From contig CAWJJC010000027.1 of assembly GCA_963843145.1 (NCBI GenBank), forward strand, positions 192,001-256,000: a stretch of 64,000 bases of DNA. The letters are read 5' to 3'. Position numbers and translations under genes: made by a program. The stretch is from an uncultured delta proteobacterium. Lineage in GTDB: Bacteria; Desulfobacterota; RBG-13-43-22. Below the pieces are notes generated by a model. The model ran no database searches. It saw only the letters and a program-made list of their open reading frames with translations, and was not told the origin of the DNA. Positions 117 to 14,804 of this stretch are shown here, in pieces (the first letter of the stretch is position 1; each line of letters begins with the position of its first letter).

Positions 117-1808
117 TTATAAAAGTTCTTTCAAACACCTGAGAAGTTCCTGGCCATGCGGGACCCCCCAACCTGTCACGGCATCAAAACCCCAGCAGGC
201 TTTATAGGGTTCACAGTAATATTTTCCAGGGCCTGAAACTGCGTTATTCCCTTTTTTAATATCAACGAAGGCGGCGTTGCCGACTTGCTTACCGTTTTTC
301 ATTTTTTTGTAGAGCATGGGAGTCAAGAATGGCAGCTTCTTGTCCGGGGGCAGCTTGGCTTTGATTCGAGCGATGAGCGCGGCCCAGACCGGTGCCGAAG
401 CGCTCGTTTTGCCTTGCGGCCACGACTGCTGGAGAAAAACCAATTGATAATACGGCCAGCCAGCCAGGGCTGACACATCGGGCACCACGCGTTTCTTCCC
501 TCTTGAGTAGTGGTTCGGATCAATATGACCAGTCTCCTGCCAAACCGGGCGATTGAATTTCCTGCAAACGCCGCCTCCGCTTGCGCTTCCCGGAAGCCTT
601 TGTCCGTGCGGATCATCAGGGTCTTTTTTCGAATCTTCCCTCCAGGCGACCTCCTCTAAGGTGGATTTTTCCAACATGGTTCCGCCAACGGCCAACACGT
701 ATGGGCTAGAGCTCGGAAAGTCGACGTGGTAACGGCCATCAGTAATTTGATTCCTCCAACCATCGTCCCCCGAGGCGACGCAGGTGGTGATGCCCTTCCT
801 GCTTACCTGATTCAATAGGGCATCGATTTTAAAGATTTCGCCCTTTGACCATCGACGGTCATCCTCGGCATAACCCCAACTGATAGATAATACGACCGGG
901 GTCGGCCTTGTATGGATCACCTTGGTGAGGAGATCGCACCAGCCCTTCTGTGTGTTTTTGGCAAAGAAGACCAAGATATTCGCCTTGGGACATAAGCCTG
1001 CGATGAGCTCCACATCCATCATCACCTCGAAAGTCATTAGCATTTTTTTTAATCGCAGCTCTGGATCTGGAATGCCGAGGATGTCCTTAAGCGTAAGGAC
1101 CTTGGCACCGGCCTTGGAACCGACCCGGATCAGCTTAATATTGGGAGCACGGGGAGGACGTTTATGTACGACATCCTTGAAATATTTAGTCAAGTCCTCT
1201 CTGAAATATCCCCCGCCAAATTGGGCGATCGCGATGGTCTGGCCCGCACCTTCCCCGAGGGGAAAATTATAATGGTTCGCGATCACCTTCGGTGTCCACG
1301 GTTCTGAAAGCACTTTTTTGCCAGTAGTTAAAGCGACACCTGACTTGGGAAATGCCATTTGTCGTTCGTCAAGCCCAAAGACCCCGGTCACGATTCCCTC
1401 GAGTTCCTTAGGGATTTTGAGCTTTCCCGCCCGGCCGCGATACAGGCCCTGAGTAGGCGATCGCTTCATCTCCCATTGAGGGTCAAAAGCTTTTTTCAAA
1501 TTCTCGGCAGTTCCGTTGACCTGCATGGTGCGCGTTAAGAGGGAGACCTTTTTTACTTTAAGTTTATACTTCTTCTCGAGCACTTCCTTTACCTTGTCGG
1601 CATCTGCCTCTTTGGCGCCAAATTTCTCCTTTAATTCCTTTGGGCTCATGATTCGGCCAGCAAATTCGTCCGGACCAGGAAGTTTCGGCCCCGATAATCC
1701 TATGGTTACGCTAATCTTCTCCCTGGGGTCGATATCGCCGACTTTTTTAGCGGTTGTATCCTTCCCGCGTTCGCTATCTTTTAGGTCCACAAGCGTATTC
1801 TTGGCCAT
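117..1808 (-). CDS. S53 (sedolisin/kumamolisin-like) serine peptidase with N-terminal pro-domain
   Basis: Pro-kumamolisin-like N-terminus (YRGRAGKLKIPKELEGIVTGVFGLDER). Catalytic Glu/Asp in FEVMMDVE, oxyanion Asp in ASGDDG, catalytic Ser in GKTSASAPVWAAL, C-terminal GFDAVTGWG. AGGAGG RBS upstream; no signal peptide. Confidence 0.93.
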   Translation of the reverse strand: MAKNTLVDLKDSERGKDTTAKKVGDIDPREKISVTIGLSGPKLPGPDEFAGRIMSPKELKEKFGAKEADADKVKEVLEKKYKLKVKKVSLLTRTMQVNGTAENLKKAFDPQWEMKRSPTQGLYRGRAGKLKIPKELEGIVTGVFGLDERQMAFPKSGVALTTGKKVLSEPWTPKVIANHYNFPLGEGAGQTIAIAQFGGGYFREDLTKYFKDVVHKRPPRAPNIKLIRVGSKAGAKVLTLKDILGIPDPELRLKKMLMTFEVMMDVELIAGLCPKANILVFFAKNTQKGWCDLLTKVIHTRPTPVVLSISWGYAEDDRRWSKGEIFKIDALLNQVSRKGITTCVASGDDGWRNQITDGRYHVDFPSSSPYVLAVGGTMLEKSTLEEVAWREDSKKDPDDPHGQRLPGSASGGGVCRKFNRPVWQETGHIDPNHYSRGKKRVVPDVSALAGWPYYQLVFLQQSWPQGKTSASAPVWAALIARIKAKLPPDKKLPFLTPMLYKKMKNGKQVGNAAFVDIKKGNNAVSGPGKYYCEPYKACWGFDAVTGWGVPHGQELLRCLKELL

Positions 1809-1846
1809 GACAGATCTCCTCCTGTAACGGTCTTCCGTAGAAGCGT

Positions 1847-3250
1847 TTATTTTATGTATTTCGTATCGAAGCCCTCAGGTGACCGATTAACTTTCTCAAT
1901 AAATCTATTCCATTTTTCTTCATTAGTCATAAATTCTGCCACCTTGAGCAGGGTCGCTTTCGTAACGGCGCGAATTATGGTGCAAATACTTTCTCGTGGC
2001 GCGTTTAAAGATCCGCAGGCGGCAAAGGTATCTCCATAGCATGGGGAGCACAATTTCTTGGCCCAGCATTGGACACACTTGGGAAAGCTGTCCTTGGAAG
2101 TCTGACTCATCAGCGCTGTCACCCTCCTAAAGTACTCACCTGGAAAATCTCTGTCATAGACGCTTCCCATGTATAGACTTTTGCTCATGACCGTATGGCA
2201 AGGGAATACCTTCCCTGTGCAGTCTACCGTAATCCCCTGGCAACCGGCGTCACAGAAACGGGCTTTCCCCTTCCGGGATGTGAGGGTATTCAAAATATCA
2301 AGCCAATAAGGAATTCTTATCGGGGAATCGGTCAACCAACTATCCATAATCCTCTCGGTCGAAGAAATGTAGCTTTGTTCCAAATCGGATAATAAAGCCT
2401 GATCAAAATATTCATCCGGTGATCCCCCGATGGCAGGGGTTAAGGATATTTCCCGGGCTCCCAAATTAAGTAAAAATTCGTAGATCGATTCGACGGGCTC
2501 CTTACATTCCCTGTGATAGTCAGTGAATACGGCTTGTATCCCGAATGCAACACCCGCATTTCGAAGCAGGTCGATTTTCTTCTTGACTAAGTAATAGGTA
2601 CCTTTCCCTGACGACAATTTGCGCTGCCTGTCATTAATGTGCGGGGGGCCATCCAGACTGATACTCACCGAGAAATGATATTTTTTAAAAAATTCAATCA
2701 TTTTTTGATCGATTAAGGTTCCATTGGTGCTGATCGAGAAATCCGGCATCAGCCTTTGATGGGCCATACAGTATTTTTCACTGGCTCGTACAGCCTCCCT
2801 GATGGCAGCAAAACCGATTAAGGGCTCACCTCCAAAAAACACAAGGCTCTGGACTTCCGGTGCGGTTTTGAATACTTTCTCGATGGCAGCACGGGCAGTA
2901 GCCGGGCTCATGACTCTGCTCTCAGGATGCAAGTCCATGTAGGCCTCGGCAAAACAATAAGAGCATTTGATATTACACGTTTGCGCTACCAATAAAACGA
3001 GGCGAGTGATTTTCGCCGGATCGGCTTTGATTGGATCATCCCTAATTGACTCCTTTAATTGCTCTGAAATGGATACCTCATCAATCGATAGAGAATCGGC
3101 AACCCGAGCCGGCAACGGATACAGGGTGAATGATTCCGTACTGAAGGCGGCGGCATTGAGATTTGACTTGAGGATTTTAATCACAACAAGCTTCCTTTTT
3201 TCGGTCCCATCGAGCTTCAAAGGAAATCGGTGGGGTTTAAGGAACCCCAC
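1847..3250 (-). CDS. Radical SAM/SPASM-domain peptide maturase (CteB/PapB/QhpD-like)
   Basis: CxxxCxxC (CNIKCSYC), FFGGEPL, STNGTL, ISLDGP. SPASM cysteines FCDAG...VFPCH...KCVQCWAKKLCSPC...SIC. Short N-terminal RRE-like segment. Start codon uncertain. Confidence 0.9.
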   Translation of the reverse strand: MGFLKPHRFPLKLDGTEKRKLVVIKILKSNLNAAAFSTESFTLYPLPARVADSLSIDEVSISEQLKESIRDDPIKADPAKITRLVLLVAQTCNIKCSYCFAEAYMDLHPESRVMSPATARAAIEKVFKTAPEVQSLVFFGGEPLIGFAAIREAVRASEKYCMAHQRLMPDFSISTNGTLIDQKMIEFFKKYHFSVSISLDGPPHINDRQRKLSSGKGTYYLVKKKIDLLRNAGVAFGIQAVFTDYHRECKEPVESIYEFLLNLGAREISLTPAIGGSPDEYFDQALLSDLEQSYISSTERIMDSWLTDSPIRIPYWLDILNTLTSRKGKARFCDAGCQGITVDCTGKVFPCHTVMSKSLYMGSVYDRDFPGEYFRRVTALMSQTSKDSFPKCVQCWAKKLCSPCYGDTFAACGSLNAPRESICTIIRAVTKATLLKVAEFMTNEEKWNRFIEKVNRSPEGFDTKYIK

Positions 3251-3435
3251 CGACAGACTGCACTGCTGTGTGACCGGTAAAGACGCCGGTACATGGACAA
3301 GTGGCCTTCATTTTGCGCCCCCCCGCCGTTGAGTCGACACAGACAAATCCAGACTAATGATCGAAAGGGTCAAAGCAGTAAGGGTAACCGTTCTAATTTC
3401 CTTACCCAGAGTCTTGAATACTCCTTGTTGCCTTA

Positions 3436-3696
3436 TCAATAAACTTTTTGCCCTGAGGGGCAGGGTGGAGGAATTGGGCTCGGATTAGGATCAGGAACCT
3501 TCCAATTTTTCTTGGCGGTCAGTATATCCTTGCAATCGTTGTAAGGTATGTCCTTGTAGCCTTTTGCCTGGAAGAAATTGTAAAGTGTTGTTTGGCTCTT
3601 TTTTGACAAGAAATCTCTTACAAGTTTTGGTTTCTTTTCTGTATCAATAATGAAGTTTATAAAATCGCTTCTGTTTCTTTGGGTTATAGACGCCAT
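3436..3696 (-). CDS. Putative RiPP precursor: Nif11-like leader plus Pro-rich core
   Basis: 86 aa with AAGGA RBS. Amphipathic leader DFINFIIDTEKKPKLVRDFLS...YNFFQAKGY..I resembles Nif11/NHLP-clan leaders; tail NWKVPDPNPSPIPPPCPSGQKVY. Directly upstream of the rSAM-SPASM gene. Confidence 0.65.
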   Translation of the reverse strand: MASITQRNRSDFINFIIDTEKKPKLVRDFLSKKSQTTLYNFFQAKGYKDIPYNDCKDILTAKKNWKVPDPNPSPIPPPCPSGQKVY

Positions 3697-3741
3697 TTTT
3701 CATCCTTTTCTTTTGGTTGAAGTTTTAAAGTTAAAAGTCGG

Positions 3742-3810
3742 TTAACTCAGGAAGATACCCATTTTTTGCCAACACCGTCGATACTTTTGTTTTTTTTCGT
3801 AACTCGTCAT
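3742..3810 (-). CDS. Small ORF, 22 aa (MTSYEKKQKYRRCWQKMGIFLS)
   Basis: Read manually on the minus strand. Strong SD AAGGAGG just upstream of ATG at 3810, TAA at 3742-3744. Below the ORF-track cutoff. Confidence 0.4.
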   Translation of the reverse strand: MTSYEKKQKYRRCWQKMGIFLS

Positions 3811-3907
3811 ATCCCTCCTTTCTTTTCCGTAGTTTTTATCAGTGGCTGCTTACGGGCTATTCATAAAGTACGCCTAATAGGCAAGTCCAGGCCTCTAGTT
3901 CGTCCGG

Positions 3908-4973
3908 CTAGGTTCCCAAAATCGGTTGTCCCATGGCCAGACTATCCAGAACCCGACGGCAATAGGGTTTATCCGGGTAAAAGTCTCCATACCCTTGCGG
4001 GGGCCGAATCATTCCATTCTTCTTACAAAGTCGGACATATGGGCACGATGGACAGGTCGTATCATCCGGCGCAACGGTCATTCGATATCCCTCGGAAGCC
4101 AGTACTTTTTGAATCATACCGAACTTGTATCTGCCCAGGCTATTTCTGTTGGAGTGCACCACACTAATATGTCGGTTGGCCATGACAATCAGGCATCCCT
4201 CGCGGTAGAGGGGAGGGACCCGAGGGATCCAGGGCATCTTGAGCATCTGAGAAACGACATTGGCCAGAGGGTTCTTCTTCACAATGGCACGGAAACCGCC
4301 CACGTCCAGAAGCGCAACCATTCGCACCAGTCTCACGAAGTCTTCCGGTTCAAGAAGCTCTTCCGATAGGGCAAAGGCGCCATTCTCTGTCCTGATAAGC
4401 TGTATGAGAATTAGATAGTCAATACTTGGAAATCTCCTAAACAGATCATCAACGAAAAGAGGCAGCTCCAACAGCAGGCTTTTTGTAACTGTTGTGAAAA
4501 TGGTAAGATCAATTCCCCTATTGACCGCCTCCTCAATGCCCCGCATCGTCCTTCGATGGGATCCCTTTCCCCGTATGCGGTCATGCAAGGCTTCGGGGCC
4601 ATCTAGGCTGATGGACATCGAAAAAAAGCTGCCGTAGTCGGCGAATCTTTTGCTGATCTCTTCCGTAATGAGTGTTCCATTGGTATTCAGGAAGATTGTT
4701 TCGTCATCCGACTTTAAAGCCATGGTCCAGGGTCTCGAACAAGCCTTCCCAGAGCAGGGGCTCACCCCCTGTAATATGCAGGTGACGGTATCCGGCATCA
4801 TCTCCTTCGACTATTATCTCTTTGACCAAATTGACGGGGAGAGTAGAGCTTCTGGAGATACTAGAGCGGGCAAAACAGTGCACACAGGAGCCGTTGCATC
4901 GAGTGGTCACTTCTATAGAGAGTTTTTCTTGCCCCACTCCTCGACAGATTTCATCTGAAGTGGTCCCCTTCAT
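3908..4973 (-). CDS. Radical SAM protein with short C-terminal Cys cluster, split by a 1-nt insertion near 4705
   Basis: The N-terminal part (ORF 4704..5012) has CNGSCVHC and ITGGEPLL. The C-terminal part (ORF 3908..4801) has NTNGTL, SISLDGP and CPSCPYVRLC. Removing base 4705 gives continuous GFKVGYETIFLNTNG. ATG overlaps the upstream stop (TGATG). Confidence 0.85.
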
Positions 4974-5965
4974 CAGCGATTCTCCCCATTCCTCAACGGT
5001 TTCAAAAGGCAACGAAGCTCATCAGCGAAGCCTGCAAGACCGCAATAATCCGCCCTGGCTGCGGCTGATTCCAGCTCGCCGCATATCCTCTCCCTGATTT
5101 TATCGATCATCCCGTTGATCAGGATATAATTAAGAACCCTTCCGGCAGGGCCGCCCTTTCGGTTCACTTTTTCGTCCTTGACTCGGTCCCATTTTTTCCT
5201 GATGTCGTTGGGAAGACAGGTGTACAGGGAAGAATGGGTTCCCTTTATCAAATCCTTCTCGATGTCCTGCAGATCATCGAGCAGCCTCCAGGCAATGCCG
5301 AAGGAGGAATAGACCGTCTGAACAGATCGAGAAAATTCTTCATTACCGGCGATTCTTTTGGCCATCAGGACGGGGGCGATCAGCCAGGTGGCCATCTGTT
5401 TCTTAAAGAAATCGCAATAGCTATCCAGAGACTCCGTTTGATCAGATGTGTCAATGCTGGAATAATAATCTTCGATAAAATCATAAACAATTGCCGGCCC
5501 ATCTTCCACTCCCCTGGCCAGTCTCTCGAAGCCATGGTTCATGATCATCCAGGATTGGCTTCTTAAAAGGAGGGCCAGGTGTGAAACAGGCAATTGTCCA
5601 TCGGTAAGATGGTCGTCAAAAGCATGAAGGAACATGGCCATGGTATGACCGGTCTTTGCATCTTTAATAAATTTTGTGCCCAGTTTTTTGTTTCCCGGAC
5701 AGGACCGATGGAGCCAAAAAAGGATCGACCAGGCTGGCGCGTAGAAGTAGTTGACAAAACTAAGGCCGTCACTAAGGGAAGCATGCAGGTATTTCATCAA
5801 GAACAGGGTTGCCTTGGTCCGCATGGATTGAGGCAAGTATTCACAGAATGACAGGATTTCCCGATTCAGCTCTCCACGGAAGGTTTCTTCTTCTCGGGAG
5901 AGGCCCACAGCGCCAAAATCGATCCGGGAGCAGAATGACAACATATCGGCGATCCTGCCTCTCAT
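4973..5965 (-). CDS. Class I isoprenoid synthase-fold protein (trans-IPPS/ComQ-like prenyltransferase candidate)
   Basis: Two Asp-rich motifs, FLHAFDDHLTDG and WRLLDDLQDIEKD, in an all-helical ~330-aa protein. TGATG overlap with the cyclase stop codon. Confidence 0.8.
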   Translation of the reverse strand: MRGRIADMLSFCSRIDFGAVGLSREEETFRGELNREILSFCEYLPQSMRTKATLFLMKYLHASLSDGLSFVNYFYAPAWSILFWLHRSCPGNKKLGTKFIKDAKTGHTMAMFLHAFDDHLTDGQLPVSHLALLLRSQSWMIMNHGFERLARGVEDGPAIVYDFIEDYYSSIDTSDQTESLDSYCDFFKKQMATWLIAPVLMAKRIAGNEEFSRSVQTVYSSFGIAWRLLDDLQDIEKDLIKGTHSSLYTCLPNDIRKKWDRVKDEKVNRKGGPAGRVLNYILINGMIDKIRERICGELESAAARADYCGLAGFADELRCLLKPLRNGENR

Positions 5966-8900
5966 CAAAAACCCCTCATCTCGACCAGTCGATCTATTTC
6001 TTCCAGATATGTTTCCATTTTCATTTCTTCATACCAGGCCCGTGCCTTCCCCAGATACGCCTCTCCCTTGATATTATCGAGCTTCTTATACTGGGCCTTT
6101 TCTTCGAGCAGGCATCTGCCAACCTCGAAGTAAAGCCTGGCCAGTTGAGGACGCGCCCCCAGGCGCTCCCCTTCCTGAACCGCTCTATGCCACCATCCGA
6201 GAGCTTTTTTGTGGTCATTGATCGTCCAGTAATAGGCTCCAGTAAGCCTGTACGAATCGGTCCGATGATAGGCCACTTTACGAGCAACCCTTCCCAGTGA
6301 TCTGATGGATTTGATGGCTTCCCTCTGGAATTTATCCATTTCCTCTCGATTTCCGCTTTTGGTTGATTCCCTCAAACAGTAGAGGTTATATTCCAGGTGA
6401 GTCTTAAAACAGTACGATATTTGAAAAGGGGCCGTTTCGGTTTGAACCCTAATTCTGTCGGCCTGTTCAAGGCACTCCTCCGCCTTATCGATTGCATTCA
6501 TCATGATGTGTATCCATGCCTGGAATGTATGGAACCCCCACCAAAAATTTGAATGTGCTTTTTGCCCAAAAGCAATTCCCTTTTCGCTCTCTATCAAAGC
6601 ATCATTGAGCTTCCCGGACTCGATCAGCAGCATCGTGCTAATCTCATATTTAAATACCTCGGAAAGACTATTCCCATAGACTTCGTAGAGATTTTGCAAT
6701 CTGTCCATGATCGCCCTGGCCTTGTCGAAGGAACCCTGGCAGATAGTGCCAAGGCCATGCCAGAACAAATATTGTGAGGCATTATAGATTTCTCCAATCC
6801 TGCAGTTCTTGTCTACGAGATCATCGTCATAATCCTTTAAGGCTTTCCAATTCCCCCCAAGGAAATGGTGTACCGTCTCGCAGACCTCATACATGGTGTA
6901 ATTCGTGACATCGCTTCGGCTGACGGTGTCGCTCAAAGCATTCAATGCCTTTTTGCTCAAGGCAAATGAAATTCCAGAATATGCAAACAAAGCGCTTGCC
7001 ATTACGAAGATCCCATAACCCTCTCGGAATTTTCGAAGATCGAAGGAACTGATGAACCTAAACAAATAGAAATATTCAATGAAAAATCTCTTGGCGTTGG
7101 TTAGGGATATGGAATTGATCTTTTTGGAGAACAGATCGACGATTTCGACATCTCGCTCCGTCGGCGTTTTCTTGAACTTCAGGAAGGGAAGGTGCAGGGA
7201 AACAAGAAAATGGGAAAAAGCCCACGAGAGCTTAATTAATTCAAAAACCGTGGCTTTAGGTAATTTCCCCCAGTAATAATCCAAGGTTTTGTCAAAATGC
7301 CTGATAGCCTCCTGGTGTTGCCCCCGGTTATATAAGGCCAGAGCAATGTTCTTTTCCAACATGGCCACCTTTTCGGGGTCAGCATTTTTGCCGGACTTTT
7401 TCAAATAGAGTTGGAGAGCTTCCTCATAATAATGCAGGGCCTCATCCGAGGCGGCTGATCGCAGGGCCTCCTCACCGGCCTTGATCAAGTATTCCTCGGC
7501 TTTCTCCAGACTCTCGGCCCGACAGTAATGATAGGCGAGCATGCCGTAGAACTCGTGAATTCGCTCGCTAAAGATTTTTTCTATGGACTGGGCCACTTTT
7601 TGGTGGATCTCTTTTCTCCTCTGGATCAGGATGGACTCATAGACCGCCTCTTGAGTTAAGGCGTGCGCAAAGAGATACTCTACCTCCTCCATTCGCTTCC
7701 TTTCCCTTATGAGCTGAATCTCCTTGAGGGCCTCGAGCCTGCTGTCGACCTTCTCGATGTGCCCGGCCACCGCGGTAAGGATCCGGTAGAAGAAGTTCCT
7801 GCCGATGACGGAGGCGATCCGGACCAGATTCTTTGTTCCTTCATCCAGCCGGTCGATACGGGCCATAATGAGGGCATGGATGCTCTGAGGAATGACGATA
7901 TCCTCGATCTTTTCCGTGACCCGGTATTCTCCCTTTTCCTGAACCACGGCCCTTTCAATGATCAAGGATCGCACTACTTCTTCAATAAAGAAGGGATTCC
8001 CTCCTGCTCTTTGGAGAATCTGCTCTCTCAGTAGATGGGGAAAACTTTTAATCTCGAGAAGATTATTGAGCAGTTGCCCACTCTCCGATTCTTTCAAGGG
8101 TTCCAGTTCGATCTTGGTCCAGTTGGTTGCATAGTTCTCCTGGATGAAGGCGATGATCCGCTCTCCGGTGTCGGTATAGCCGGGACGGAAGACTATAATA
8201 AAAAGAATCCGGCATTCTTCCACCAGGCGGAAGAGGGCCTTGAGAAGTTCTAGGGAACTCGTATCCACCCAGTGGAAGTCTTCCATATAGATCATCATTG
8301 GTCTGACTTCAGAGCCCCTAATGAGCAGCTCCCGCATGCTCCTAAAGATAAGCTTTTCTAAGGCCTCCCCTTCGATGCCCAGAACCCGCTGGGCGGATTT
8401 TTCGTTAAGCTTCATCCCCATGAGGGTAGCAATGAAGGGAAAGATCTCCCCGGCTTCCTCGGGATGAATGTCCCGAATGGCCCGCTCAAGTTTCCACTGG
8501 GCCTCTGCATCGGTGTCCTTGCCCCTGATCTGGGACCAATACTTCAAGGCGTCGACGATGGGATAAAAGCTTAGGCTTCTCCCCATGGAAATGGCACGAC
8601 CTTCGAGGAAGACGGTCTTTTTGACGGCTGCTGTTTGGCGCAGTTCGGCCAGAAGGCGGGACTTCCCGATCCCCGGCTCGCCGATGACGGTGATAATCCC
8701 TCCCTGACCATTGATGAGGCGAACGACCTGAAGCGATAGGAGATCCATTTCCTTCTCTCTTCCTACTAGAGGGGAATCAAAACCCACCGATCGCCTTGTT
8801 TTTTCCTTTTTCCCCACTACCCGATAAATCTTTACTGGTTCGGTCTTGCCTTTGACCCGAGCGGGGACGAGCGGTTCAAAATCAAAAAGCCAATCAGCCC

Positions 8901-9549
8901 GACGAAAGGTGTTGTGACCCACTAAAATCTCACCGGGCCGCGCCAGCGTAGACAACCGGGATGCCAGATTAACCGTATCTCCGGTAATTCCAAGGATTCC
9001 CTTTCCCAATGTTACTTCACCGGTAACGACCAGTCCTGTATTGATCCCTGAATGCATGGCCAAACGCTTTCCGACCGTGTACTCAAATTGAGGACTAATG
9101 TCCTCGATCCGTTCATGTATTTCTCTCGCCGCTCGGATCGCTCTAACCGGATCATCCTCATGAACCTTGGGCACCCCAAAGAACGCTACCACCGCATCAC
9201 CGATAAATTTCTGAATAGTCCCCTCATATTTACTCACTGTATCGCTCATCTCACCGAAGATCCGGTTCATGATCTTTTTAACCTCTTCAGGATCCAACCG
9301 CTCAGACATGGCCGTATATCCGGAGAGATCAGAGAAAAGAACCGTCACCTGCTTTCGTTCCTCTTCGATGGCTGATTCTATCTGTCTGGCAGCTAATACA
9401 TCTAATTGCCGCCCGCACCTGCCGCAGAACTGAAATCCCTCGGGATTTACGAAATGGCAGGCAGGGCAAATCCCCTCCAATTTGGTACCACATTTTCCAC
9501 AAAAATCCAGGCCATCGGGGTTATGATATTGGCATTGGGGGCATTTCAT
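5965..9549 (-). CDS. Double zinc ribbon + class III adenylate/guanylate cyclase + STAND AAA ATPase + TPR protein
   Basis: CPQC..CGKC..CPAC..CGRC; VTVLFSDLSGYT, KFIGDAVVAFF, GDTVNLASRL; Walker A GEPGIGKS, Walker B YMEDFHW; helical TPR C-terminus. Confidence 0.93.
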   Translation of the reverse strand: MKCPQCQYHNPDGLDFCGKCGTKLEGICPACHFVNPEGFQFCGRCGRQLDVLAARQIESAIEEERKQVTVLFSDLSGYTAMSERLDPEEVKKIMNRIFGEMSDTVSKYEGTIQKFIGDAVVAFFGVPKVHEDDPVRAIRAAREIHERIEDISPQFEYTVGKRLAMHSGINTGLVVTGEVTLGKGILGITGDTVNLASRLSTLARPGEILVGHNTFRRADWLFDFEPLVPARVKGKTEPVKIYRVVGKKEKTRRSVGFDSPLVGREKEMDLLSLQVVRLINGQGGIITVIGEPGIGKSRLLAELRQTAAVKKTVFLEGRAISMGRSLSFYPIVDALKYWSQIRGKDTDAEAQWKLERAIRDIHPEEAGEIFPFIATLMGMKLNEKSAQRVLGIEGEALEKLIFRSMRELLIRGSEVRPMMIYMEDFHWVDTSSLELLKALFRLVEECRILFIIVFRPGYTDTGERIIAFIQENYATNWTKIELEPLKESESGQLLNNLLEIKSFPHLLREQILQRAGGNPFFIEEVVRSLIIERAVVQEKGEYRVTEKIEDIVIPQSIHALIMARIDRLDEGTKNLVRIASVIGRNFFYRILTAVAGHIEKVDSRLEALKEIQLIRERKRMEEVEYLFAHALTQEAVYESILIQRRKEIHQKVAQSIEKIFSERIHEFYGMLAYHYCRAESLEKAEEYLIKAGEEALRSAASDEALHYYEEALQLYLKKSGKNADPEKVAMLEKNIALALYNRGQHQEAIRHFDKTLDYYWGKLPKATVFELIKLSWAFSHFLVSLHLPFLKFKKTPTERDVEIVDLFSKKINSISLTNAKRFFIEYFYLFRFISSFDLRKFREGYGIFVMASALFAYSGISFALSKKALNALSDTVSRSDVTNYTMYEVCETVHHFLGGNWKALKDYDDDLVDKNCRIGEIYNASQYLFWHGLGTICQGSFDKARAIMDRLQNLYEVYGNSLSEVFKYEISTMLLIESGKLNDALIESEKGIAFGQKAHSNFWWGFHTFQAWIHIMMNAIDKAEECLEQADRIRVQTETAPFQISYCFKTHLEYNLYCLRESTKSGNREEMDKFQREAIKSIRSLGRVARKVAYHRTDSYRLTGAYYWTINDHKKALGWWHRAVQEGERLGARPQLARLYFEVGRCLLEEKAQYKKLDNIKGEAYLGKARAWYEEMKMETYLEEIDRLVEMRGF

Positions 9550-9871: not shown

Positions 9872-11234
9872 TCAGAATCCAATTTTGCTGCTGATCGTTA
9901 CCACCCGTTCCCGAATTTCTTCCCAATCCAGCGTCAACAGCTTTCGCTGCCGCATCACCATTTGCCCGGCAATAAAAACCGTGTCTACATCCGCCCCGGA
10001 GGCCGCATAGACTAAGTGGGAAAAGGGATGGTAGAGGGGGGTCAAATGGGGTTGGTTTAGATTGATCAAAATCAAATCCGCCTGTTTGCCCACTTCCAAA
10101 GAACCGATTTCTTTTTCCAGCCCCAGGACCTTGGCCGCCTCGAGGGTGGCCATTTCCAGGACGGAATGGGCCTCCAACACGGTAGGGTCGAGGCGATGGA
10201 CCTTGTGCAGGCGAGCGGCGGTGCCCATTTCCCGGAAGAGATCCAGGTCATTATTGCCGGCACAGCCGTCCGTGCCCAACCCCACGACTATCCCTCGGGC
10301 CAGCAGTTCCACAACCGGGGTGACCCCCGCCCCCAGCTTCATATTGCTTTCCGGGCAATGGCTAACACGTGTCCCCGCTTCGGCCAGGAGTGCCATTTCC
10401 TCCAGATCCGGATAATTCACATGGACCCCGATAGTGGAATCATCCAGACAACCCAACCTATGCAAATAACGAACCGGGGTCAGACCGGTTTGACCCTGGA
10501 CCAGGGCCACCTCCTCCCGGGTTTCCGCCAGGTGAATAAATAAAGGAATCGCCTTTTCCAGGGCCAGGGCCTTGGCCTTTTCCAGGGTCTTCGCGGAGCA
10601 GGTGTAAGGAGAATGGGGGAACAACCCCAGTCGGATCCCGAGGAGATTGTCCGGACCATTTTTCGATGAAATCCCGGGCCGAACGGATATTGTCGGCCGG
10701 GTCCGGGACACCCGGGGCCGGAAAATCAATCACCCCCGGGGCCAGGACAGCCCGCATGCCGGACTGATAAATCGCTCGGGCGGCGCCATCCAGGCAAAAA
10801 TAGCCGTCGGCCAGGGTGGTGGTCCCGGAGCGGATCATTTCAGCGCAGGCCAGGAGGCTTCCCCAGTAAACCGTCTCCGGGTTGATAAACCGGGCCTCCG
10901 CGGGGAAGATGTGCTTTTCCAGCCAGTCCTTCAGGGGCAGGTCGTCGGCCAGACCCCGGAAAAGGGTCATGGCCGAATGGGTGTGGGTATTGATCAGCCC
11001 CGGCAGGACCAGGAACCCCCGGCCGTCAATCACTTCCCGGGCCGTCCAGAGCTCCGGACAACGGGCGCCGAGATACGTAATCCGGCTGTCTTTGATGCCT
11101 ATGGAGCCGGTCGGAATCGGGTCGGGATGAGCCGGGGACAGGGTTAGGATCAGTCCGTCCTTGATCAAAAAATCAAAATCCTCCTCGACAGGCCCTTGTT
11201 GCGAGGGTAGTTTCGAATTTTGATATTTGGTCAT
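9872..11234 (-). CDS. Amidohydrolase, MTA/SAH deaminase (MtaD)-like, paralog 2; +1 frameshift near 10638
   Basis: PGLINTHTH, FPHSPYTC, IHLAET, HCPESNMKL, GLGTDG motifs spread over ORFs 10458..11234 and 9872..10729. Removing one G from CGGGATC restores SPRIRLGLFPH. Confidence 0.85.
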
Positions 11235-11292: not shown

Positions 11293-12636
11293 CTAATTTA
11301 GCCGGGCCAGCCGCAAAGACTCGGCGAAACGATTCGCCCGGGATAAAATTTCTTTAAGATCCAGGGTCAACAGCTCCCGGTTCTTCATCACCGTTCGGCC
11401 ATTGATGATCACCCGGGTGACATCGGCGCCCCGAGCCGCGTAGACTAGATGGGAATAGATGTTATAAAGTGGTGTCAGGTGCGGTTGATCCAGGTCCAAG
11501 AGTATAATATCGGCCTTTTTTTCGGCCTCCAGGGACCCCACCCGGGATTCCAGCCCCAGCACCCGGGCACCGCCGCGGGTAGCCATCCGGAACACGGTGC
11601 GGGCATCCATGACAGTGGGATCCAGACGATGGACCTTATGCAGTTTGGCCGCCGAATCCATTTCCTGAAACAAGTCCAAATTGTTGTTGCTGGCGCAGCC
11701 GTCGGTCCCCAGGCCGACGCAAACCCCCCGGCGTAACAGCTCTACCACCGGGGCCACCCCGGAGGCCAGTTTCATATTACTTTCCGGGCAATGGACCACC
11801 TTGACCCCCGCGGCCGCCAGGGTTTTCTGGTCGGCTTCCGGGAGCACCACGCAGTGAACGGCGATTAGATGCGCGTCGAGCAACCCCAATCGGGCCAGGT
11901 GCTGGGTCGGCGAGACCCCGTATTGTTTCAAAATCTGATCTGCTTCGGTTTGGGTTTCCGCCAGGTGGATGATCAGGGGAACCCCGGTTTCAGCCGACAA
12001 CCTTTTGGCCTGGAGGAGCAACTCCGGGCCGCAGGTGAACGGGGTGTGGGGTTCAACGGCCACAGAAATCAGGGGGTCATCCCGGTATTTCCGGATCAAC
12101 TCACGAGTATATTCAAACCCCTTTTCCAGGGGCCCGTAATTGGGGGAGGGAAAATCGTAAAGCACTTCTCCCACCAAAGCCCGCAGGCCGGCCTCCTGGG
12201 CGGCCCGAGCCACCTGGCCCTCGAAAAGGTACATGTCGCAGAAGGTGGTGGTACCGGACAAGATCATCTCCGCGCAAGCCAGCAAGGTCCCCCAATAGAC
12301 CCATTCCCCGGTCAGGCGGCGTTCCGCCGGAAAGATATGGTTTTCCAGCCAATCCATCAGCGGCAGGTCGTCGGCCAAGCCGCGCAGCAAGGTCATGGCC
12401 GCATGGGTATGGCTATTGATCAAACCGGGCAAAACGGCCCCTCCGCGGGCATCAACGACTTCCTTGGCCTTTAAGGCCAACGGCGCCAGCTCTTGTTCCG
12501 GTCCTACGGCCAAGATAGAATCTCCGCTAATCGCCAGGGCCCCGGGATGAAAAATATTCAGCCGGTCATCCATGGTGACTACCAGGCCGTTTTTTATGAA
12601 TAGATCAATGGGTTTTTCTGATATCCGAACGCTCAT
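11293..12636 (-). CDS. mtaD: Amidohydrolase, MTA/SAH deaminase (MtaD)-like, paralog 1
   Basis: PGLINSHTHAAMTLLRGLADDLPL, EPHTPFT, IHLAET, HCPESNMKLASG, GTDGCASNN; adjacent to PNP. Confidence 0.85.
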   Translation of the reverse strand: MSVRISEKPIDLFIKNGLVVTMDDRLNIFHPGALAISGDSILAVGPEQELAPLALKAKEVVDARGGAVLPGLINSHTHAAMTLLRGLADDLPLMDWLENHIFPAERRLTGEWVYWGTLLACAEMILSGTTTFCDMYLFEGQVARAAQEAGLRALVGEVLYDFPSPNYGPLEKGFEYTRELIRKYRDDPLISVAVEPHTPFTCGPELLLQAKRLSAETGVPLIIHLAETQTEADQILKQYGVSPTQHLARLGLLDAHLIAVHCVVLPEADQKTLAAAGVKVVHCPESNMKLASGVAPVVELLRRGVCVGLGTDGCASNNNLDLFQEMDSAAKLHKVHRLDPTVMDARTVFRMATRGGARVLGLESRVGSLEAEKKADIILLDLDQPHLTPLYNIYSHLVYAARGADVTRVIINGRTVMKNRELLTLDLKEILSRANRFAESLRLARLN

Positions 12637-12721
12637 CCTCCCCTATTCCTCTAAAAATTGAAATCTCAAAATGAAATTGAGGCACGCGGGTCTCTGGCAA
12701 AATAATTTAAATATTCTTTGG

Positions 12722-13576
12722 TTAGCTTTTAATTTTCCTCCCGCCCTTCAGCTCCTGCGGGGTCAATTTGGAAACCACCCCTTCGACCAGGGCCATCAAT
12801 CGGGGTTCGGCTTTTCGCGCCGTGGCAATAATGGCCTTCAGCGAAGCGGGCTCCTGGCAGTCCGGTCGGTTGACGTTGGAAATGACCGATATTCCCAGAA
12901 TTCGCAGACGGCACTGCACCGCGGTAATAACTTCCAGGACGGTGGACATGCCCACGGCTTGGGCCCCCATCTGTCTGAGCATTCGCGTTTCCGCCGGCGT
13001 CTCCAGGCTGGGTCCCTTGACCGCTACGTAGACCCCCCGGCGAAGCGGGATTTGTTTCTGCAGAGCCACTTTTTCGGCCAGGTCCGTCAAGCGGCGGTCA
13101 TAAACGGCGGAGAGGTCGGGAAAACGGTCTCCCCAATACTCCTGGTGGGAACCTACCAGAGGATTCTCTCCGGTAAGATTGATGTGATCCATGATCAGCA
13201 TCAGATCCCCGGACTCGAACCCGGGGTCCAGACCCCCGGCGGCATTGGAAACGATCAGGACCTTCACGCCTAATCCGGCCAGTACCCGAATAGGGAAACC
13301 GATCTCCTGGGGCGCATAGCCTTCATAGAGATGGAACCGGCCCTGAAGGGCGACTACCGGTTTACCGGCCAGGGTCCCCCAAACCAACTGGCCCTGATGG
13401 GACTCCACGGTGGAATGGGGGAAATAGGGTATTTGCTCATAGGGGATGGACCGGGCCTTTTTGATCCCGCCAGCCGACTCACCCAGACCGGTGCCCAGGA
13501 TAAGTCCGATGGGGGCCACGCCACCCATTTTCTTCTTCAAGTAGGAGACTGTTTTTAGAAATCGTTCTTTGTTCAT
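12722..13576 (-). CDS. punA: Purine-nucleoside phosphorylase (trimeric PNP I family)
   Basis: LILGTGLG, QGRFHLYEGY, SNAAGG, DHINL, GPSLETPAE, AVGMST. Likely start MNKERF at 13576. Confidence 0.9.
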   Translation of the reverse strand: MNKERFLKTVSYLKKKMGGVAPIGLILGTGLGESAGGIKKARSIPYEQIPYFPHSTVESHQGQLVWGTLAGKPVVALQGRFHLYEGYAPQEIGFPIRVLAGLGVKVLIVSNAAGGLDPGFESGDLMLIMDHINLTGENPLVGSHQEYWGDRFPDLSAVYDRRLTDLAEKVALQKQIPLRRGVYVAVKGPSLETPAETRMLRQMGAQAVGMSTVLEVITAVQCRLRILGISVISNVNRPDCQEPASLKAIIATARKAEPRLMALVEGVVSKLTPQELKGGRKIKS

Positions 13577-13862: not shown

Positions 13863-14774
13863 ATGGATCGAAGAGCTTTTTTGAAAGAGGTCGCCCTGTG
13901 GTCGGCCGGGTTGACCCTCGTTCCGCCTCTGGTGACGATGAAACCGGAAGCCCGAGCCGAAGGGAACAAATCTTTGGTGATAGTCGGAGAAGGTTCGGAT
14001 TATCCCGCCCTGGTATCTAAGGTGCTAGCCCCGCTGGGGGGGATGACCGCCCTGGTCAAGAAAGGGGACCGAGTGGTGGTCAAGCCCAATATCGGTTGGG
14101 ATCGCACCCCGGAACAGGCCGCCAATACCCACCCGGAGGTGGTCAAGGCCCTGGTCAAACAGGCCCTGGAGGCGGGGGCCGGCCAAGTGCTGGTCTTTGA
14201 CCGGACCTGCAACGAGGAGCGACGCTGTTACGTCAACAGCGGGATCAAAAAAGCCGTGGAGTCCCTCGGGGACCGTCGGGTGTCCTGTCCTTTTATCGAT
14301 CAGCGGAAATTTGTTCCGGTCCGTTTGGCTAAAGGTAAATCCCTCCAGGAATGGGAATTTTACAAAGACGCCCTCGAGGCCGACTGCTATATCAACGTAC
14401 CGGTGGCCAAACATCACTCCTCGGCCGGTCTCAGCCTGGGTCTGAAGAACATCATGGGGGTCCTCGGCGGTTCTCGCGGCAAAATCCACTTTTCTTTGGG
14501 ACAGCGGATCGCCGATCTGAATCTGGTGATCAAACCTCGGGTTACAGTCATCGACGCTACCCGGATCCTGCTGCGCAACGGTCCGCAGGGAGGGGATCTG
14601 CGGGATGTCAAAGTGCTTAATACCCTGCTGGCCTCCACCGACATCGTGGCTGTTGACGCCTATGCCGCCACTTTTTTTCAATTAAAACCCGAAGAGGTGG
14701 AATCGACCCGGGCGGCCTTTCAATTGGGTCTGGGAGAAATTGACCTGAAGAAGATAAAGATCCTTAAAGTCTGA
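13863..14774 (+). CDS. DUF362 domain protein with Tat signal
   Basis: MDRRAFLK twin-Arg motif; VVVKPNIGW, NTHPEVV, INVPVAKHH, LGLKNIMG. Confidence 0.88.
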   Translation: MDRRAFLKEVALWSAGLTLVPPLVTMKPEARAEGNKSLVIVGEGSDYPALVSKVLAPLGGMTALVKKGDRVVVKPNIGWDRTPEQAANTHPEVVKALVKQALEAGAGQVLVFDRTCNEERRCYVNSGIKKAVESLGDRRVSCPFIDQRKFVPVRLAKGKSLQEWEFYKDALEADCYINVPVAKHHSSAGLSLGLKNIMGVLGGSRGKIHFSLGQRIADLNLVIKPRVTVIDATRILLRNGPQGGDLRDVKVLNTLLASTDIVAVDAYAATFFQLKPEEVESTRAAFQLGLGEIDLKKIKILKV

Positions 14775-14804
14775 ACGAGTCGATTTCGTGCTTTGATTTT
14801 ATAG

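Follow-up and report, generated by a model that had tools for sequence, protein, structure and literature searches.

The window analyzed here, a stretch of 64,000 nucleotides, carries at its left edge a series of minus-strand genes that the first-pass annotation had proposed to be a RiPP-type locus. These genes encode, from upstream to downstream, a protein with cyclase and STAND domains (5965–9549, 1194 aa), a DDxxD protein with a predicted IPPS fold (4973–5965, 330 aa from its ATG), a first radical SAM protein, rSAM1 (3908–4976, ~355 aa, with Radical_SAM on both halves), a precursor peptide (3436–3696, 86 aa), an rSAM-SPASM protein with a Radical_SAM domain (open frame 1847–3250, or 1847–3184 from the likely GTG start) and an S53 peptidase with a Pro-kuma_activ domain (117–1808). 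A conserved GC-rich hairpin was detected on the same strand at 3226–3254 in a terminator-like scan. The 5′ end of a 400-aa GGR-like flavoprotein gene occupies positions 1–109; starting at 109, it leaves the window, in agreement with the earlier suspicion that the locus might pass the left edge. The cyclase-STAND, DDxxD, peptide, rSAM-SPASM and S53 genes were all confirmed as previously called, with matching domain assignments for the cyclase protein, both radical SAM genes and the S53 peptidase. The two TGATG stop/start overlaps were read directly in the sequence, one at 5965 between the cyclase stop and the IPPS-fold ATG (...TTTTGATGAGA) and the other at 4973 between the IPPS-fold stop and the rSAM1 ATG (...CGCTGATGAAG). 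Two small peptides had been claimed, and only one was supported; the small frames at 3308–3439, 3745–3810 and 3217–3300 were discarded as peptides because their proteins are not conserved in 12 related loci.

The claim of two radical SAM genes held as far as the domain is concerned, Radical_SAM being found on both, but rSAM1 is not a single open frame here. It is split in the assembly into the frames 4704–4976 and 3908–4801 by one extra nucleotide, g at 4705, which is absent from the loci L018, L026 and L049. A 231-nt contig from run X2 (depth 2.4, single contig) lacks base 4705 and shows 0 other differences; therefore, the frameshift is probably an assembly error. If it were real, this copy of the cassette would be defective. 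The protein has a CX3CX2C motif and four C-terminal Cys, a pattern that fits one auxiliary cluster of the twitch-like type, and these Cys are conserved in 55 homologues (positions 27, 31, 34, 308, 311 and 317 at 1.0, and 339 at 0.98, L018 numbering). Weak similarity was detected to the mycofactocin radical SAM model TIGR03962 of NCBIfam (31.4 and 30.5 bits, cut-off 265) and to the decarboxylase BlsE (7vob, 9.5e-9).

The gene set was also sought elsewhere, in a sample of 80 metagenome loci around the IPPS-fold gene. Among the loci with enough room, the IPPS-fold gene was immediately preceded by a cyclase-STAND gene in 56/57 (54 by script plus L026 and L035, where the genes overlap by 1–2 nt) and immediately followed by rSAM1 in 68/68. 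A small ORF ending in Tyr accompanied the enzymes in all 42 loci with room (37 by HMM, four with divergent leaders and one, in L044, upstream), in line with the proposal of a RiPP-type locus and with the co-occurrence that it implied. The repetition of this gene order across the related loci examined indicates that the cassette is not due to chance: the genes are real and the cassette is recurrent. Its conserved core consists of the cyclase-STAND protein, the IPPS-fold enzyme, rSAM1 and the small peptide. The rSAM-SPASM and S53 genes, previously treated as central, are accessory, being present in 4/10 and 3/10, respectively, of the metagenome loci with >7 kb downstream; minimal clusters without a peptidase were also observed (L013, L019 and L020). 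The presence of the cassette is patchy and polymorphic within the genus. A literature search for the combination of cyclase, IPPS-fold protein, radical SAM and peptide retrieved no description, so that this gene cluster, which recurs in bacteria, has apparently not been described before, as the first-pass annotation had supposed.

The precursor peptide, whose gene is single copy in the genome, has a helical leader (residues ~1–63) and, after it, a variable core (...PIPPPCPSGQKVY) with Tyr at its C-terminus. In an alignment of 40 sequences (A3), no columns are invariant except M1, F15 and the terminal Y. This last residue is present in 48/48 distinct neighboring peptides and in 143 among the best 150 of 347 cluster representatives, against a background of C-terminal Tyr of 2.8–3.1% (20/708 long ORFs, 2.8%). 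The invariant C-terminal Tyr, missed in the earlier reading, is the likely target of modification. The preceding residue is free (G in 13/48, then S, C, K and others), and the tail sub-types CPxxxxxY, WPPPPxY, GxDYY and xxCY go with particular accessory enzymes. The proposal of a Nif11-like precursor was borne out by profile–profile comparison with 20 Nif11 proteins (hhalign 91.9%, E 7e-7; 21 controls ≤2.0%) but not by the Pfam Nif11 model, which does not reach the peptide; judged from these profiles, the relationship of the leader to Nif11 is remote.

No Pfam or NCBIfam model, polyprenyl_synt included, matched the 330-aa enzyme at E ≤ 0.01. Its AlphaFold2 model (alignment A1; pLDDT 90.2, pTM 0.90) gave GGPP/FPP synthases as the top Foldseek matches (E 8e-5, TM 0.55–0.67) and superimposed on 9jsc_A with a VIA Z of 22.4 (rmsd 3.0 Å over 286 residues). 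According to this model, the enzyme carries a trans-isoprenyl-diphosphate-synthase (trans-IPPS) fold, as the first-pass annotation had suspected. In profile comparison it resembles canonical synthases weakly (hhalign 19%, E 0.0012), with WRLLDDLQD aligned onto their FQxxDDxxD, and "class 1 isoprenoid biosynthesis enzyme" is the NCBI name for two among the 120 homologues listed. Two Asp-rich motifs with their neighboring residues (H115, D118, D119, H120 and D123; R228, D231, D232, D235 and D239) are invariant in 26 sequences reaching down to 37% identity, which argues for catalysis, and the protein is regarded as a putative peptide prenyltransferase. In complex models with the precursor peptide, the leader was placed on the enzyme with an ipSAE of 0.65 (best control 0.01), a value reached by 58/80 solved complexes and 2/110 mismatched pairs; contacts agreed by at least 62% between runs and the partner pLDDT was at least 74. 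The modelled interface joins peptide residues 11–30 and 49–69 to enzyme residues 32–69, in the N-terminal helices, and in these models the peptide tail (70–86) and its Tyr were not confidently placed in the active site.

Between the peptide and rSAM-SPASM genes, the hairpin has a 12-bp GC-rich stem (TCGGTGGGGTT-N5-AACCCCACCGA) and is present in 13/13 loci with rSAM-SPASM, with a compensatory change in only 2/12 pairs. It had no match in Rfam and could act in attenuation, mark the end of a transcript or serve as a palindromic binding site for a protein. The rSAM-SPASM protein, of 445 aa from a conserved GTG at 3184, matched Pfam Radical_SAM (1.1e-18) and, under the 21.5 cut-off, SPASM (18.3 bits). 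Its best NCBIfam scores were obtained with PapB (186.8, cut-off 340), rSAM_nif11 (180.7, 518.7) and QhpD (170.6, 453), and its best PDB match was 5wgg (2.8e-21), which we take to be CteB. A Cys lies among the 13 residues that precede the final Tyr in 14/14 peptides with this gene beside them and in 5/21 that lack it; the count excludes 13 peptides whose flanking DNA was too short. In some tails, such as that of L018, neither Asp nor Glu follows the leader, and the partner in a thioether, if there is one, can therefore not always be one of these residues.

The S53 protein is a kumamolisin-like serine-carboxyl peptidase with a pro-domain (Pfam Pro-kuma_activ, 5.1e-11) that aligns with pro-kumamolisin 1t1e (2.7e-54), including the E/D, D and GTS motifs; no hydrophobic stretch was found at its N-terminus in a Kyte–Doolittle scan. 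It is a putative leader peptidase, and S8 subtilases replace it in other loci. The GGR-like FAD enzyme (G000:C27:190907-192109, equivalent to L002 14907-16109) starts 7 nt past the S53 stop. It aligns with positions 3–297 of the 297 of TIGR02032, GG-red-SF (E 2.8e-34, 119.1 bits, cut-off 158.8), and weakly with MenJ (52 bits) and the UbiH family. This gene is downstream in 6/10 metagenome loci with >7 kb of room and absent in 4/10, and was also detected in L012–L014 and L018–L020; the flavoprotein is a member of the cluster and its second isoprenoid-family enzyme. Neither a signal peptide nor a clear membrane segment was detected in any cassette product, and no ABC signature in 32 loci of at least 9 kb, in line with the first-pass annotation, in which no exporter was visible.

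The cyclase protein consists, by Pfam, of a double zinc ribbon (DZR, 8.2e-11), a class III cyclase domain at ~63–242 (Guanylate_cyc, 1.8e-22), AAA_16 at 260–450 (4.5e-21) and TPRs at ~700–1194 (TPR_12, 4e-9). Its residues 51–742 align with the NCBIfam model TIGR03903, "TOMM system kinase/cyclase fusion protein" (E 1.2e-90; 305 bits, cut-off 705.75), and among PDB entries it matches class III cyclases best, such as 2w01 (3.5e-29). The catalytic residues of the cyclase are kept in relatives (metal Asp D74 in 34/34 and D118 in 35/35, N194 in 35/36, R198 in 36/36), as is the Walker A GKS of the STAND NTPase (40/40). Across 35 loci, the identity of residues 701–970 and 971–1194 tracks that of the IPPS-fold enzyme (Spearman 0.87 and 0.78, values that overstate independence because the loci are related), and that of residues 56–700 does not (-0.15, 0.02 and -0.10). 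Compared with the same-genus genome G336, residues 1–760 are 72–94% identical per 40-aa bin and those beyond 760 only 20–47%, with 44% identity in the IPPS-fold enzyme; the pattern between the two halves is reversed in L049. The recombination boundary, at ~680–760, falls where the TPR region begins. This co-variation of the TPR half with the biosynthetic genes lends support to the earlier link between the locus and the STAND cyclase, although the TPR half adjoins those genes and plain linkage could yield the mosaic.

Taken together, the preferred explanation of the cassette is a novel prenylated-peptide system of the ComQ/ComX or PalQ/PalX kind, centered on the C-terminal Tyr and with a Nif11-like leader, a reading of its chemistry and signalling to which about an even chance is given. 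The leader would dock onto helices 2–3 of the IPPS-fold enzyme, as modelled, and the enzyme would bind a prenyl diphosphate through its two Asp-rich motifs and alkylate the terminal Tyr. By analogy with PalQ, an isoprenoid lipid is thus probably attached to the last residue of the small peptide. Further changes to this residue or to the prenyl group could be made by rSAM1, with its one auxiliary cluster, and the flavoprotein, judged by its family, could saturate the prenyl double bonds. In the present sub-type, the Cys in the CPxxxxxY tail would be turned into a thioether by the rSAM-SPASM, and the leader would be cleaved off by the S53 peptidase. Recognition of the product would fall to the TPR half of the STAND protein, whose oligomerization may turn on the class III cyclase and give a cyclic nucleotide output, as the mosaic leads us to propose. 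A dedicated intracellular sensor enzyme accompanies the cassette, and this suggests a novel type of signal made from a modified peptide.

Alternatively, the peptide could be a scaffold for a small molecule or cofactor, as in mycofactocin or PQQ, a possibility considered unlikely. The Tyr would be worked by the radical SAM, given an isoprenoid tail, reduced or hydroxylated by the flavoprotein and cut off as a quinone- or tocopherol-like product used inside the cell, with the STAND cyclase acting only as a regulator. The last residue is indeed the only invariant one in the core, the products all look cytoplasmic with no exporter encoded, peptidases recur across loci, and rSAM1 and the flavoprotein have their weak relatives in the mycofactocin radical SAM and BlsE, and in MenJ and the UbiH family. 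However, the pairing of tail sub-types with accessory enzymes suggests that the product keeps more than the Tyr, peptidases are missing from the minimal clusters, the locus has a patchy, polymorphic distribution within the genus with no dependent oxidoreductases linked, and the penultimate residue is free, unlike MftA, in which Val-Tyr is fixed. Another view, quite unlikely in our opinion, is that of a natural product made from a modified peptide, with antimicrobial or other activity; the STAND cyclase would then be a transcriptional or physiological regulator of the cluster, or an unrelated, carried-along neighbor, and not a receptor. Sets of rSAM, rSAM-SPASM, B12-rSAM, S8 and S53 are typical of RiPP tailoring, the name of TIGR03903 places such cyclases in other RiPP loci, and linkage alone could explain the mosaic; but no exporter signature or immunity gene was recognised, the cyclase stop overlaps the next start with the pairing kept almost throughout, and the recombination boundary falls at the TPR start.

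It is improbable that the IPPS-fold protein is instead a leader-binding scaffold for the radical SAM or a separate synthase of an unusual isoprenoid. No family HMM matches it, and in the modelled interface the leader contacts no part of it other than the N-terminal helices. PalQ is reported to remain active after mutation of the SARM Asp (PMC10853753), so the motifs alone are no proof of mechanism; nevertheless, their invariance down to 37% identity argues for catalysis, and the frequent GGR-like partner also speaks against this alternative. Finally, it is very improbable that the locus is an island for defence against phages, with a Pycsar-like cyclase under the control of a STAND sensor. The locus is variable within the genus, the cyclase domain is matched by PADLOC PycC models (2.5e-19 at best) and both radical SAMs by pVip models, but these matches cover generic cyclase and radical SAM cores only, and no PADLOC model matches the IPPS-fold, flavoprotein or S53 proteins. 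Moreover, the loci showed no effector of the kind activated by cNMPs, and a defence system of this type would leave the peptide and its invariant Tyr without a role.

Among known systems, the accessory rSAM-SPASM resembles PapB, QhpD and 5wgg, with all scores below the family cut-offs. As with the ranthipeptide/SCIFF maturases PapB and CteB, the substrate tail always has a Cys (14/14 here), although some tails differ in having no Asp or Glu after the leader. An rSAM-SPASM beside a serine peptidase and a flavoprotein recalls the QhpD/QhpE/QhpG trio, the peptidase here being S53 and not S8. The cyclase–STAND NTPase architecture is that of TIGR03903, by name part of another RiPP system, but with a double zinc ribbon in place of the kinase domain and with different partner enzymes. 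As in mycofactocin (MftA/MftC) and PQQ, a small peptide acts through its C-terminal Tyr, together with a radical SAM with auxiliary cluster(s) and peptidase(s), all cytoplasmic; by contrast, the TIGR03962 score is ~31 bits against 265, there is no fixed Val-Tyr, and the cassette has an IPPS-fold enzyme and a STAND cyclase and no separate RRE protein, glycosyltransferase or dehydrogenase.

The PalQ/PalX/PalP system of Paenibacillus alvei, compared here by its description in PMC10853753, shares with the cassette a structured leader (NHLP there, Nif11-like here), a conserved C-terminal aromatic residue, a co-encoded signalling protein and a leader–enzyme binding predicted by a structure model. 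PalQ, of the isoprene-synthase superfamily, prenylates the conserved C-terminal Trp of its NHLP-leader peptide and this Trp only; the other electron-rich residues tried were not accepted, and its gene adjoins that of a histidine kinase (PMC10853753). All characterised trans-IDS-like peptide prenyltransferases target Trp, according to the review PMC13290415. The residue here is a Tyr, and the partner is a cytoplasmic STAND cyclase instead of a membrane histidine kinase. The cassette also differs in its obligatory radical SAM partner, its frequent GGR-like reductase and its host, an anaerobic Desulfobacterota-type lineage judging from the names of related records.

ComQ/ComX/ComP quorum sensing shows pherotype polymorphism, with the sensor part varying along with the biosynthetic genes. 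Similarly, in the cassette the sensor half of the STAND protein co-varies with the biosynthetic genes and the output half is conserved. In the Bacillus system, as outlined in PMC10853753 and PMC13290415, the gene of a trans-IDS-like prenyltransferase also lies beside peptide and receptor genes with no dedicated exporter. ComQ modifies an internal Trp and is described as having no true second Asp-rich motif (PMC10853753), whereas both motifs are invariant here. The output of the cassette would be a cyclic nucleotide and not phosphotransfer, and extra radical SAM chemistry is encoded.

Between 117 and 9549 the minus strand contains five long ORFs and a single clear small gene. The largest product, a protein of 1194 aa (5965-9549), here called the sensor, contains in Pfam a double zinc ribbon, a class III cyclase domain (1.8e-22), an AAA_16 STAND NTPase (4.5e-21) and TPR repeats. 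It is followed by a protein of 330 aa (4973-5965) with DDHLTD and DDLQD motifs and no match in Pfam or NCBIfam, a putative peptide prenyltransferase referred to as the IPPS-fold enzyme, and by a first radical SAM gene, rSAM1 (3908-4976), whose frame is split in the assembly. A small ORF of 86 aa, the precursor peptide (3436-3696), a second radical SAM gene with a Radical_SAM domain, rSAM-SPASM (frame 1847-3250), and a kumamolisin-like S53 peptidase gene (117-1808) complete the set, all on the minus strand. The two TGATG stop/start overlaps described in the first-pass annotation were present when the sequence was read directly. The possibility that the locus extends past the left edge was also borne out: a gene for a geranylgeranyl-reductase-like (GGR-like) flavoprotein of 400 aa starts 7 nt past the S53 stop and is followed by an S58 peptidase gene on the opposite strand.

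The genome assembly consists of 32 contigs and is 97.9% complete, with 6.9% contamination. Compared with three close homologues, rSAM1 has one extra nucleotide, at 4705, which breaks its frame. In four DNA runs of one study, kept as contigs and holding small shares, a single contig spans this site (231 bases, otherwise identical, low depth), and it lacks the extra base. A TRZ/ATZ-type amidohydrolase gene at 9872-11234 on the minus strand is likewise split, into the overlapping frames 9872-10729 and 10458-11234. Its counterpart in a genome of the same genus, G336, is an uninterrupted frame of 452 aa (14146-15504 of the related locus L016), and tblastn placed the adjacent amidohydrolase match at G336:C24:51172-52452. 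Two apparent frameshifts within 11 kb hint at an error-prone assembly. In view of the contig without the extra base and of the amidohydrolase gene being intact in the sister genome, the rSAM1 break was read as probably an assembly error.

The start of rSAM-SPASM is most likely the GTG at 3184, to judge from the conservation of this codon and of a ribosome-binding site ahead of it. A 12-bp GC-rich hairpin (3226-3254, minus strand) stands about 40-70 nt before this start and was kept in all 13 loci with the gene. Its sequence is strongly conserved in the window and 12 related loci, with little covariation, and its possible roles are those of an attenuator, an RNA-end element or a binding site for a protein. 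An Rfam scan of the intergenic regions, hairpin included, gave no match other than one by chance (E 0.74), and a promoter/terminator scan was uninformative, with 6 promoter-like sites where shuffled sequence gave 10.6 on average. Only one of the two small peptides initially proposed was supported. The three other candidate frames were not conserved in comparison with 12 related loci, where their matches were fragments of the hairpin palindrome only, on both strands.

The recurrence of the locus was analyzed through the IPPS-fold enzyme. A search of 5.8 billion proteins returned 644 relatives at E ≤ 0.001; among the 120 relatives listed, identity was 59-100% over at least 81% of the query, and two bear the name "class 1 isoprenoid biosynthesis enzyme". 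The protein is patchy in the phylum, being present in 9 of 401 sampled genomes at E ≤ 1e-10, this genome counted. Scanning the genome collection with the single protein yielded 3 loci only, and a pattern scan of metagenomes yielded at least 228 encoding loci, out of which 80 were kept for the synteny counts. Where the flanking DNA gave room, a cyclase-STAND gene lay directly upstream of the IPPS-fold gene in 56 of 57 loci (a script counted 54, having missed L026 and L035 only through gene overlap) and the first rSAM directly downstream in 68 of 68. A small ORF ending in Tyr was found in all 42 loci with room, 37 by HMM, 4 with divergent leaders and 1 upstream; the co-occurrence of homologous enzymes with a small ORF, on which the RiPP reading of the first-pass annotation depended, was thus confirmed. 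These counts are not all independent, since the 80 loci include duplicates (L020 = L054 = L055; L030 = L058; L098 = L100). Two unusual arrangements were also observed: in L044 the precursor gene (253-495) precedes the IPPS-fold gene rather than following the rSAM, and L087 has tandem precursor genes (12187-12432 and 12488-12754), both encoding peptides ending in PDSY, with longer and divergent leaders.

The genes after the peptide gene vary. In some loci the GGR-like gene stands alone (e.g., L013 and L019), in others it is accompanied by rSAM-SPASM and S53, as in the window (L018, L026, L029, L045 and L049), and in others S8 subtilases, B12-binding rSAMs, other rSAMs or a PNPOx-like protein were found. 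Ten loci extend more than 7 kb downstream; of these, 6 contain the GGR-like gene, 4 rSAM-SPASM and 3 S53. Therefore, the core of the cassette is limited to four genes, those for the sensor, the IPPS-fold enzyme, rSAM1 and the peptide, and rSAM-SPASM and S53, initially regarded as central, are accessory. The first-pass annotation was largely right in what it observed and right in kind in its reading, which needs to be re-centred on this core and on the terminal Tyr of the peptide.

In the alignment of 40 peptides the N-terminal domain is conserved (DFIxFIxDA...L..FF..GY.DI..DC..IL), and the core after it varies in both length and sequence. The general features of a RiPP precursor, namely a small gene adjoining the enzymes (42 of 42 loci), a conserved leader and a hypervariable core, were all found. 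The final Tyr is the sole invariant residue of the core and forms the C-terminus of each of 48 distinct neighbouring peptides. When the peptide profile was run against 1.84 billion cluster representatives, 347 members were obtained at E ≤ 0.001, and 143 of the best 150 of them end in Tyr, the 7 exceptions looking truncated or extended; as background, Tyr ends about 3% of the ORFs in the same DNA. The tails fall into the sub-types CPxxxxxY, WPPPPxY, GxDYY and xxCY. The rSAM-SPASM gene adjoins only peptides with a Cys at most 13 residues from the Tyr (14 of 14), and a tail Cys was present in 5 of 21 peptides from loci with room for the gene and lacking it, 13 peptides with too little flanking DNA having been dropped.

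The description of the precursor as Nif11-like held in part. The Pfam model PF07862 misses the window peptide (no match at E ≤ 10), and among 7 related peptides it reached 15.2 bits in one, with a cut-off of 23.8. By contrast, hhalign of the peptide alignment against 20 PF07862-positive proteins of the phylum gave 91.9% (E 7e-7, 53 columns), with 0.2% for the reversed control and at most 2.0% for 20 column-shuffled ones. Since this profile-profile match is far above the controls, the leader is, at the level of sequence profiles, a remote Nif11 relative. Many Nif11 leaders carry a Gly-Gly type cleavage motif; a conserved GG column was absent from the alignment.

Prediction of the IPPS-fold protein from its single sequence was useless (pLDDT 44.4), whereas AlphaFold2 with an alignment of 26 homologues reached a pLDDT of 90.2. 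This model matched GGPP, FPP and long-chain prenyl diphosphate synthases in Foldseek (E 8e-5, TM 0.55-0.67), and VIA gave a Z of 22.4 with an rmsd of 3.0 A over 286 residues, in agreement with the isoprenoid-synthase fold proposed initially. H115, D118, D119, H120 and D123, as well as R228, D231, D232, D235 and D239, are invariant in the 26 sequences, so that both Asp-rich motifs, of the kind expected in trans-IDS-like peptide prenyltransferases for Mg-diphosphate binding, are invariant. The second of them can be aligned to FQxxDDxxD in the canonical synthases of the genome, with a weak profile match (hhalign 19%, E 0.0012). The protein had no match to PF00348 at E ≤ 0.01, and a genome-wide search with this model found two ordinary polyprenyl synthases elsewhere and not this gene. 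Nothing meaningful was found with the profile of the enzyme among PDB sequences (best E 0.11).

A model of the enzyme in complex with the peptide gave an ipSAE of 0.65, the best control giving 0.01, and passed a threshold that 58 of 80 solved complexes, and also 2 of 110 mismatched pairs, had passed. From run to run at least 62% of the contacts recur, and the pLDDT of the partner is 74 or more. Confident contacts join residues 11-30 and 49-69 of the peptide leader to residues 32-69 of the enzyme, and the tail of the peptide is unplaced. Recognition of the leader by its modifying enzyme is thereby predicted.

The first rSAM contains CX3CX2C and four conserved C-terminal Cys (C-x2-C-x5-C...C), a set that, as read from the sequence, would suffice for one auxiliary cluster and not for a full SPASM domain. 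Its closest solved relatives are weak ones: BlsE (9.5e-9), SkfB, viperin and MoaA. In the translation of rSAM-SPASM (1847-3184), CNIKCSYC and a C-terminal CX3C...CX6C...CX2CX5CX2C were found; the assignment to the SPASM type agrees with the CX3CX2C motif, the Cys-rich C-terminus and Radical_SAM (1.1e-18), though the Pfam SPASM score of 18.3 bits is under the cut-off of 21.5. The model of the PapB ranthipeptide maturase, NF047865, gave 186.8 bits, below its equivalog cut-off of 340. The S53 sedolisin was corroborated by Pro-kuma_activ (5.1e-11) and by EVxxDxE, SGDDG and GxTSASAP in register with the catalytic motifs of 1t1e (2.7e-54). The GGR-like flavoprotein matched TIGR02032 over model positions 3-297 of 297 with 119.1 bits (E 2.8e-34; cut-off 158.8), and more weakly MenJ, halogenases and UbiH-type hydroxylases; we take its GYVWHVP to resemble the YxWxFP motif of GGRs. 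A simple hydropathy scan detected no signal peptide or clear membrane segment in any product. The ABC signature LSGG[QEM] gave one spurious match in 32 loci of at least 9 kb, in a crude search blind to MFS or other exporters.

The sensor has the Pfam domains of a STAND class III cyclase. Its relatives conserve the Walker motifs and the metal and transition-state residues of the cyclase, which argues that the sensor is under selection as an enzyme. At residue 114, the first substrate-specifying position, the window has Lys and 33 relatives have Glu (19), Gln (6), Arg (5) or Lys (3); given this variation, members of the family may make different cyclic nucleotides.

In 35 loci with a near-complete homologue, the identity of each region to the window sensor was compared with the identity of the IPPS-fold enzyme. 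Spearman rho was -0.15 for residues 56-255, 0.02 for 256-480 and -0.10 for 481-700, rising to 0.87 for 701-970 and 0.78 for 971-1194. In G336, where flanking genes at the same chromosomal site are 92-97% identical to those of the window, 40-aa bins of the sensor share 72-94% identity as far as residue 760 and 20-47% after it; the IPPS-fold enzymes share 44%, and G336 has other accessory genes (S8, rSAM and another FAD enzyme). Locus L049 has the reverse pattern, with bins of 30-67% before residue 640 and 72-95% in most beyond 680, two of the latter dipping to 45-62%, and an enzyme 85% identical. The switch in identity, around residues 680-760, falls together with the first TPR (702-758). This mosaic is the pattern to be expected if the TPR half recognises the product of the cassette; plain linkage is an alternative source of the same pattern, and the loci compared are related.

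The G336 locus L016 (G336:C24:37000-56500) carries another version of the cassette at this site, with a peptide ending in LLETGY and two apparent frameshifts in the sensor gene, near window-protein residues 50-56 and 968-970. In G169, a third genome of the genus, the cassette is absent and other genes occupy the site, which is thus a presence/absence and allelic hotspot. There, a 375-aa Fe-S protein gene and a 607-aa malic-enzyme-like gene were found between the amidohydrolase and S58 genes (L136, G169:C6:1-7500).

Taken together, the best reading, which we hold with evenly balanced confidence, is a putatively prenylated and rSAM-modified Tyr-terminal peptide that would be sensed by the STAND-TPR cyclase. 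Its main rival, a small molecule or cofactor derived from the peptide, was judged improbable. The cassette did not match the mycofactocin system: the MftC-type model TIGR03962 gave scores of 31.4 and 30.5 bits (cut-off 265), and mycofactocin precursors have a fixed C-terminal Val-Tyr, whereas the penultimate residue of the cassette peptides is variable. A sensed, Tyr-terminal peptide could also be part of a widespread pherotype-like communication system of anaerobes, in which a ribosomal peptide, lipidated on its C-terminal Tyr and reworked by a dedicated rSAM, would be read directly by the TPR of a cytoplasmic STAND receptor with a cyclic nucleotide as output; this extension is tentative and somewhat doubtful. 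The mosaic of the sensor resembles the pherotype polymorphism of comQXP. With similar reserve, the pherotype-like system would imply the first Tyr-directed trans-IDS-like prenyltransferase and a RiPP-to-cNMP signalling axis without described counterpart.

If the reading is right, Tyr would join the residues lipidated by isoprenoid-synthase-fold enzymes, so far only Trp according to PMC13290415, and a new tool for C-terminal peptide lipidation would be at hand. It would also define an extensive family of uncharacterised peptides, with 347 clusters at 50% identity and no fewer than 228 metagenomic loci, that is simply diagnosed by a Nif11-like leader with a terminal Tyr, and would propose a ligand class for many orphan bacterial STAND/TPR cyclases. 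The domain-level mosaic would then predict cognate and non-cognate signal-receptor pairs, as in Bacillus pherotypes.

No description of this gene set was found in a search of largely open-access main texts, passages of PMC8939145 and PMC2887384 included, and a prior description may exist elsewhere; no model in the NCBIfam library (June 2026) describes the cassette family. A search with PADLOC for Pycsar or another catalogued defence system gave only PycC and pVip, matching the generic cyclase and rSAM cores, and nothing for the IPPS-fold, flavoprotein and S53 proteins; the reading as a defence system was set aside on this result. Trp, the acceptor in ComQ, PalQ and ChrPC-P, is not the conserved residue here, which is the C-terminal Tyr. 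According to a 2026 review, all characterised trans-IDS-like peptide prenyltransferases target Trp (PMC13290415). Among them, PalQ belongs to the isoprene-synthase superfamily, was formerly annotated as a terpene synthase, and prenylates the conserved C-terminal Trp of a peptide with an NHLP leader; its activity needs this Trp at the terminus, and its cluster includes a histidine kinase (PMC10853753). The cassette follows the same logic of a terminal aromatic residue and a leader peptide; the residue is Tyr, not Trp, and the leader is Nif11-like, not NHLP. It also includes an obligatory rSAM and, frequently, a reductase, and its signalling partner is of another kind.
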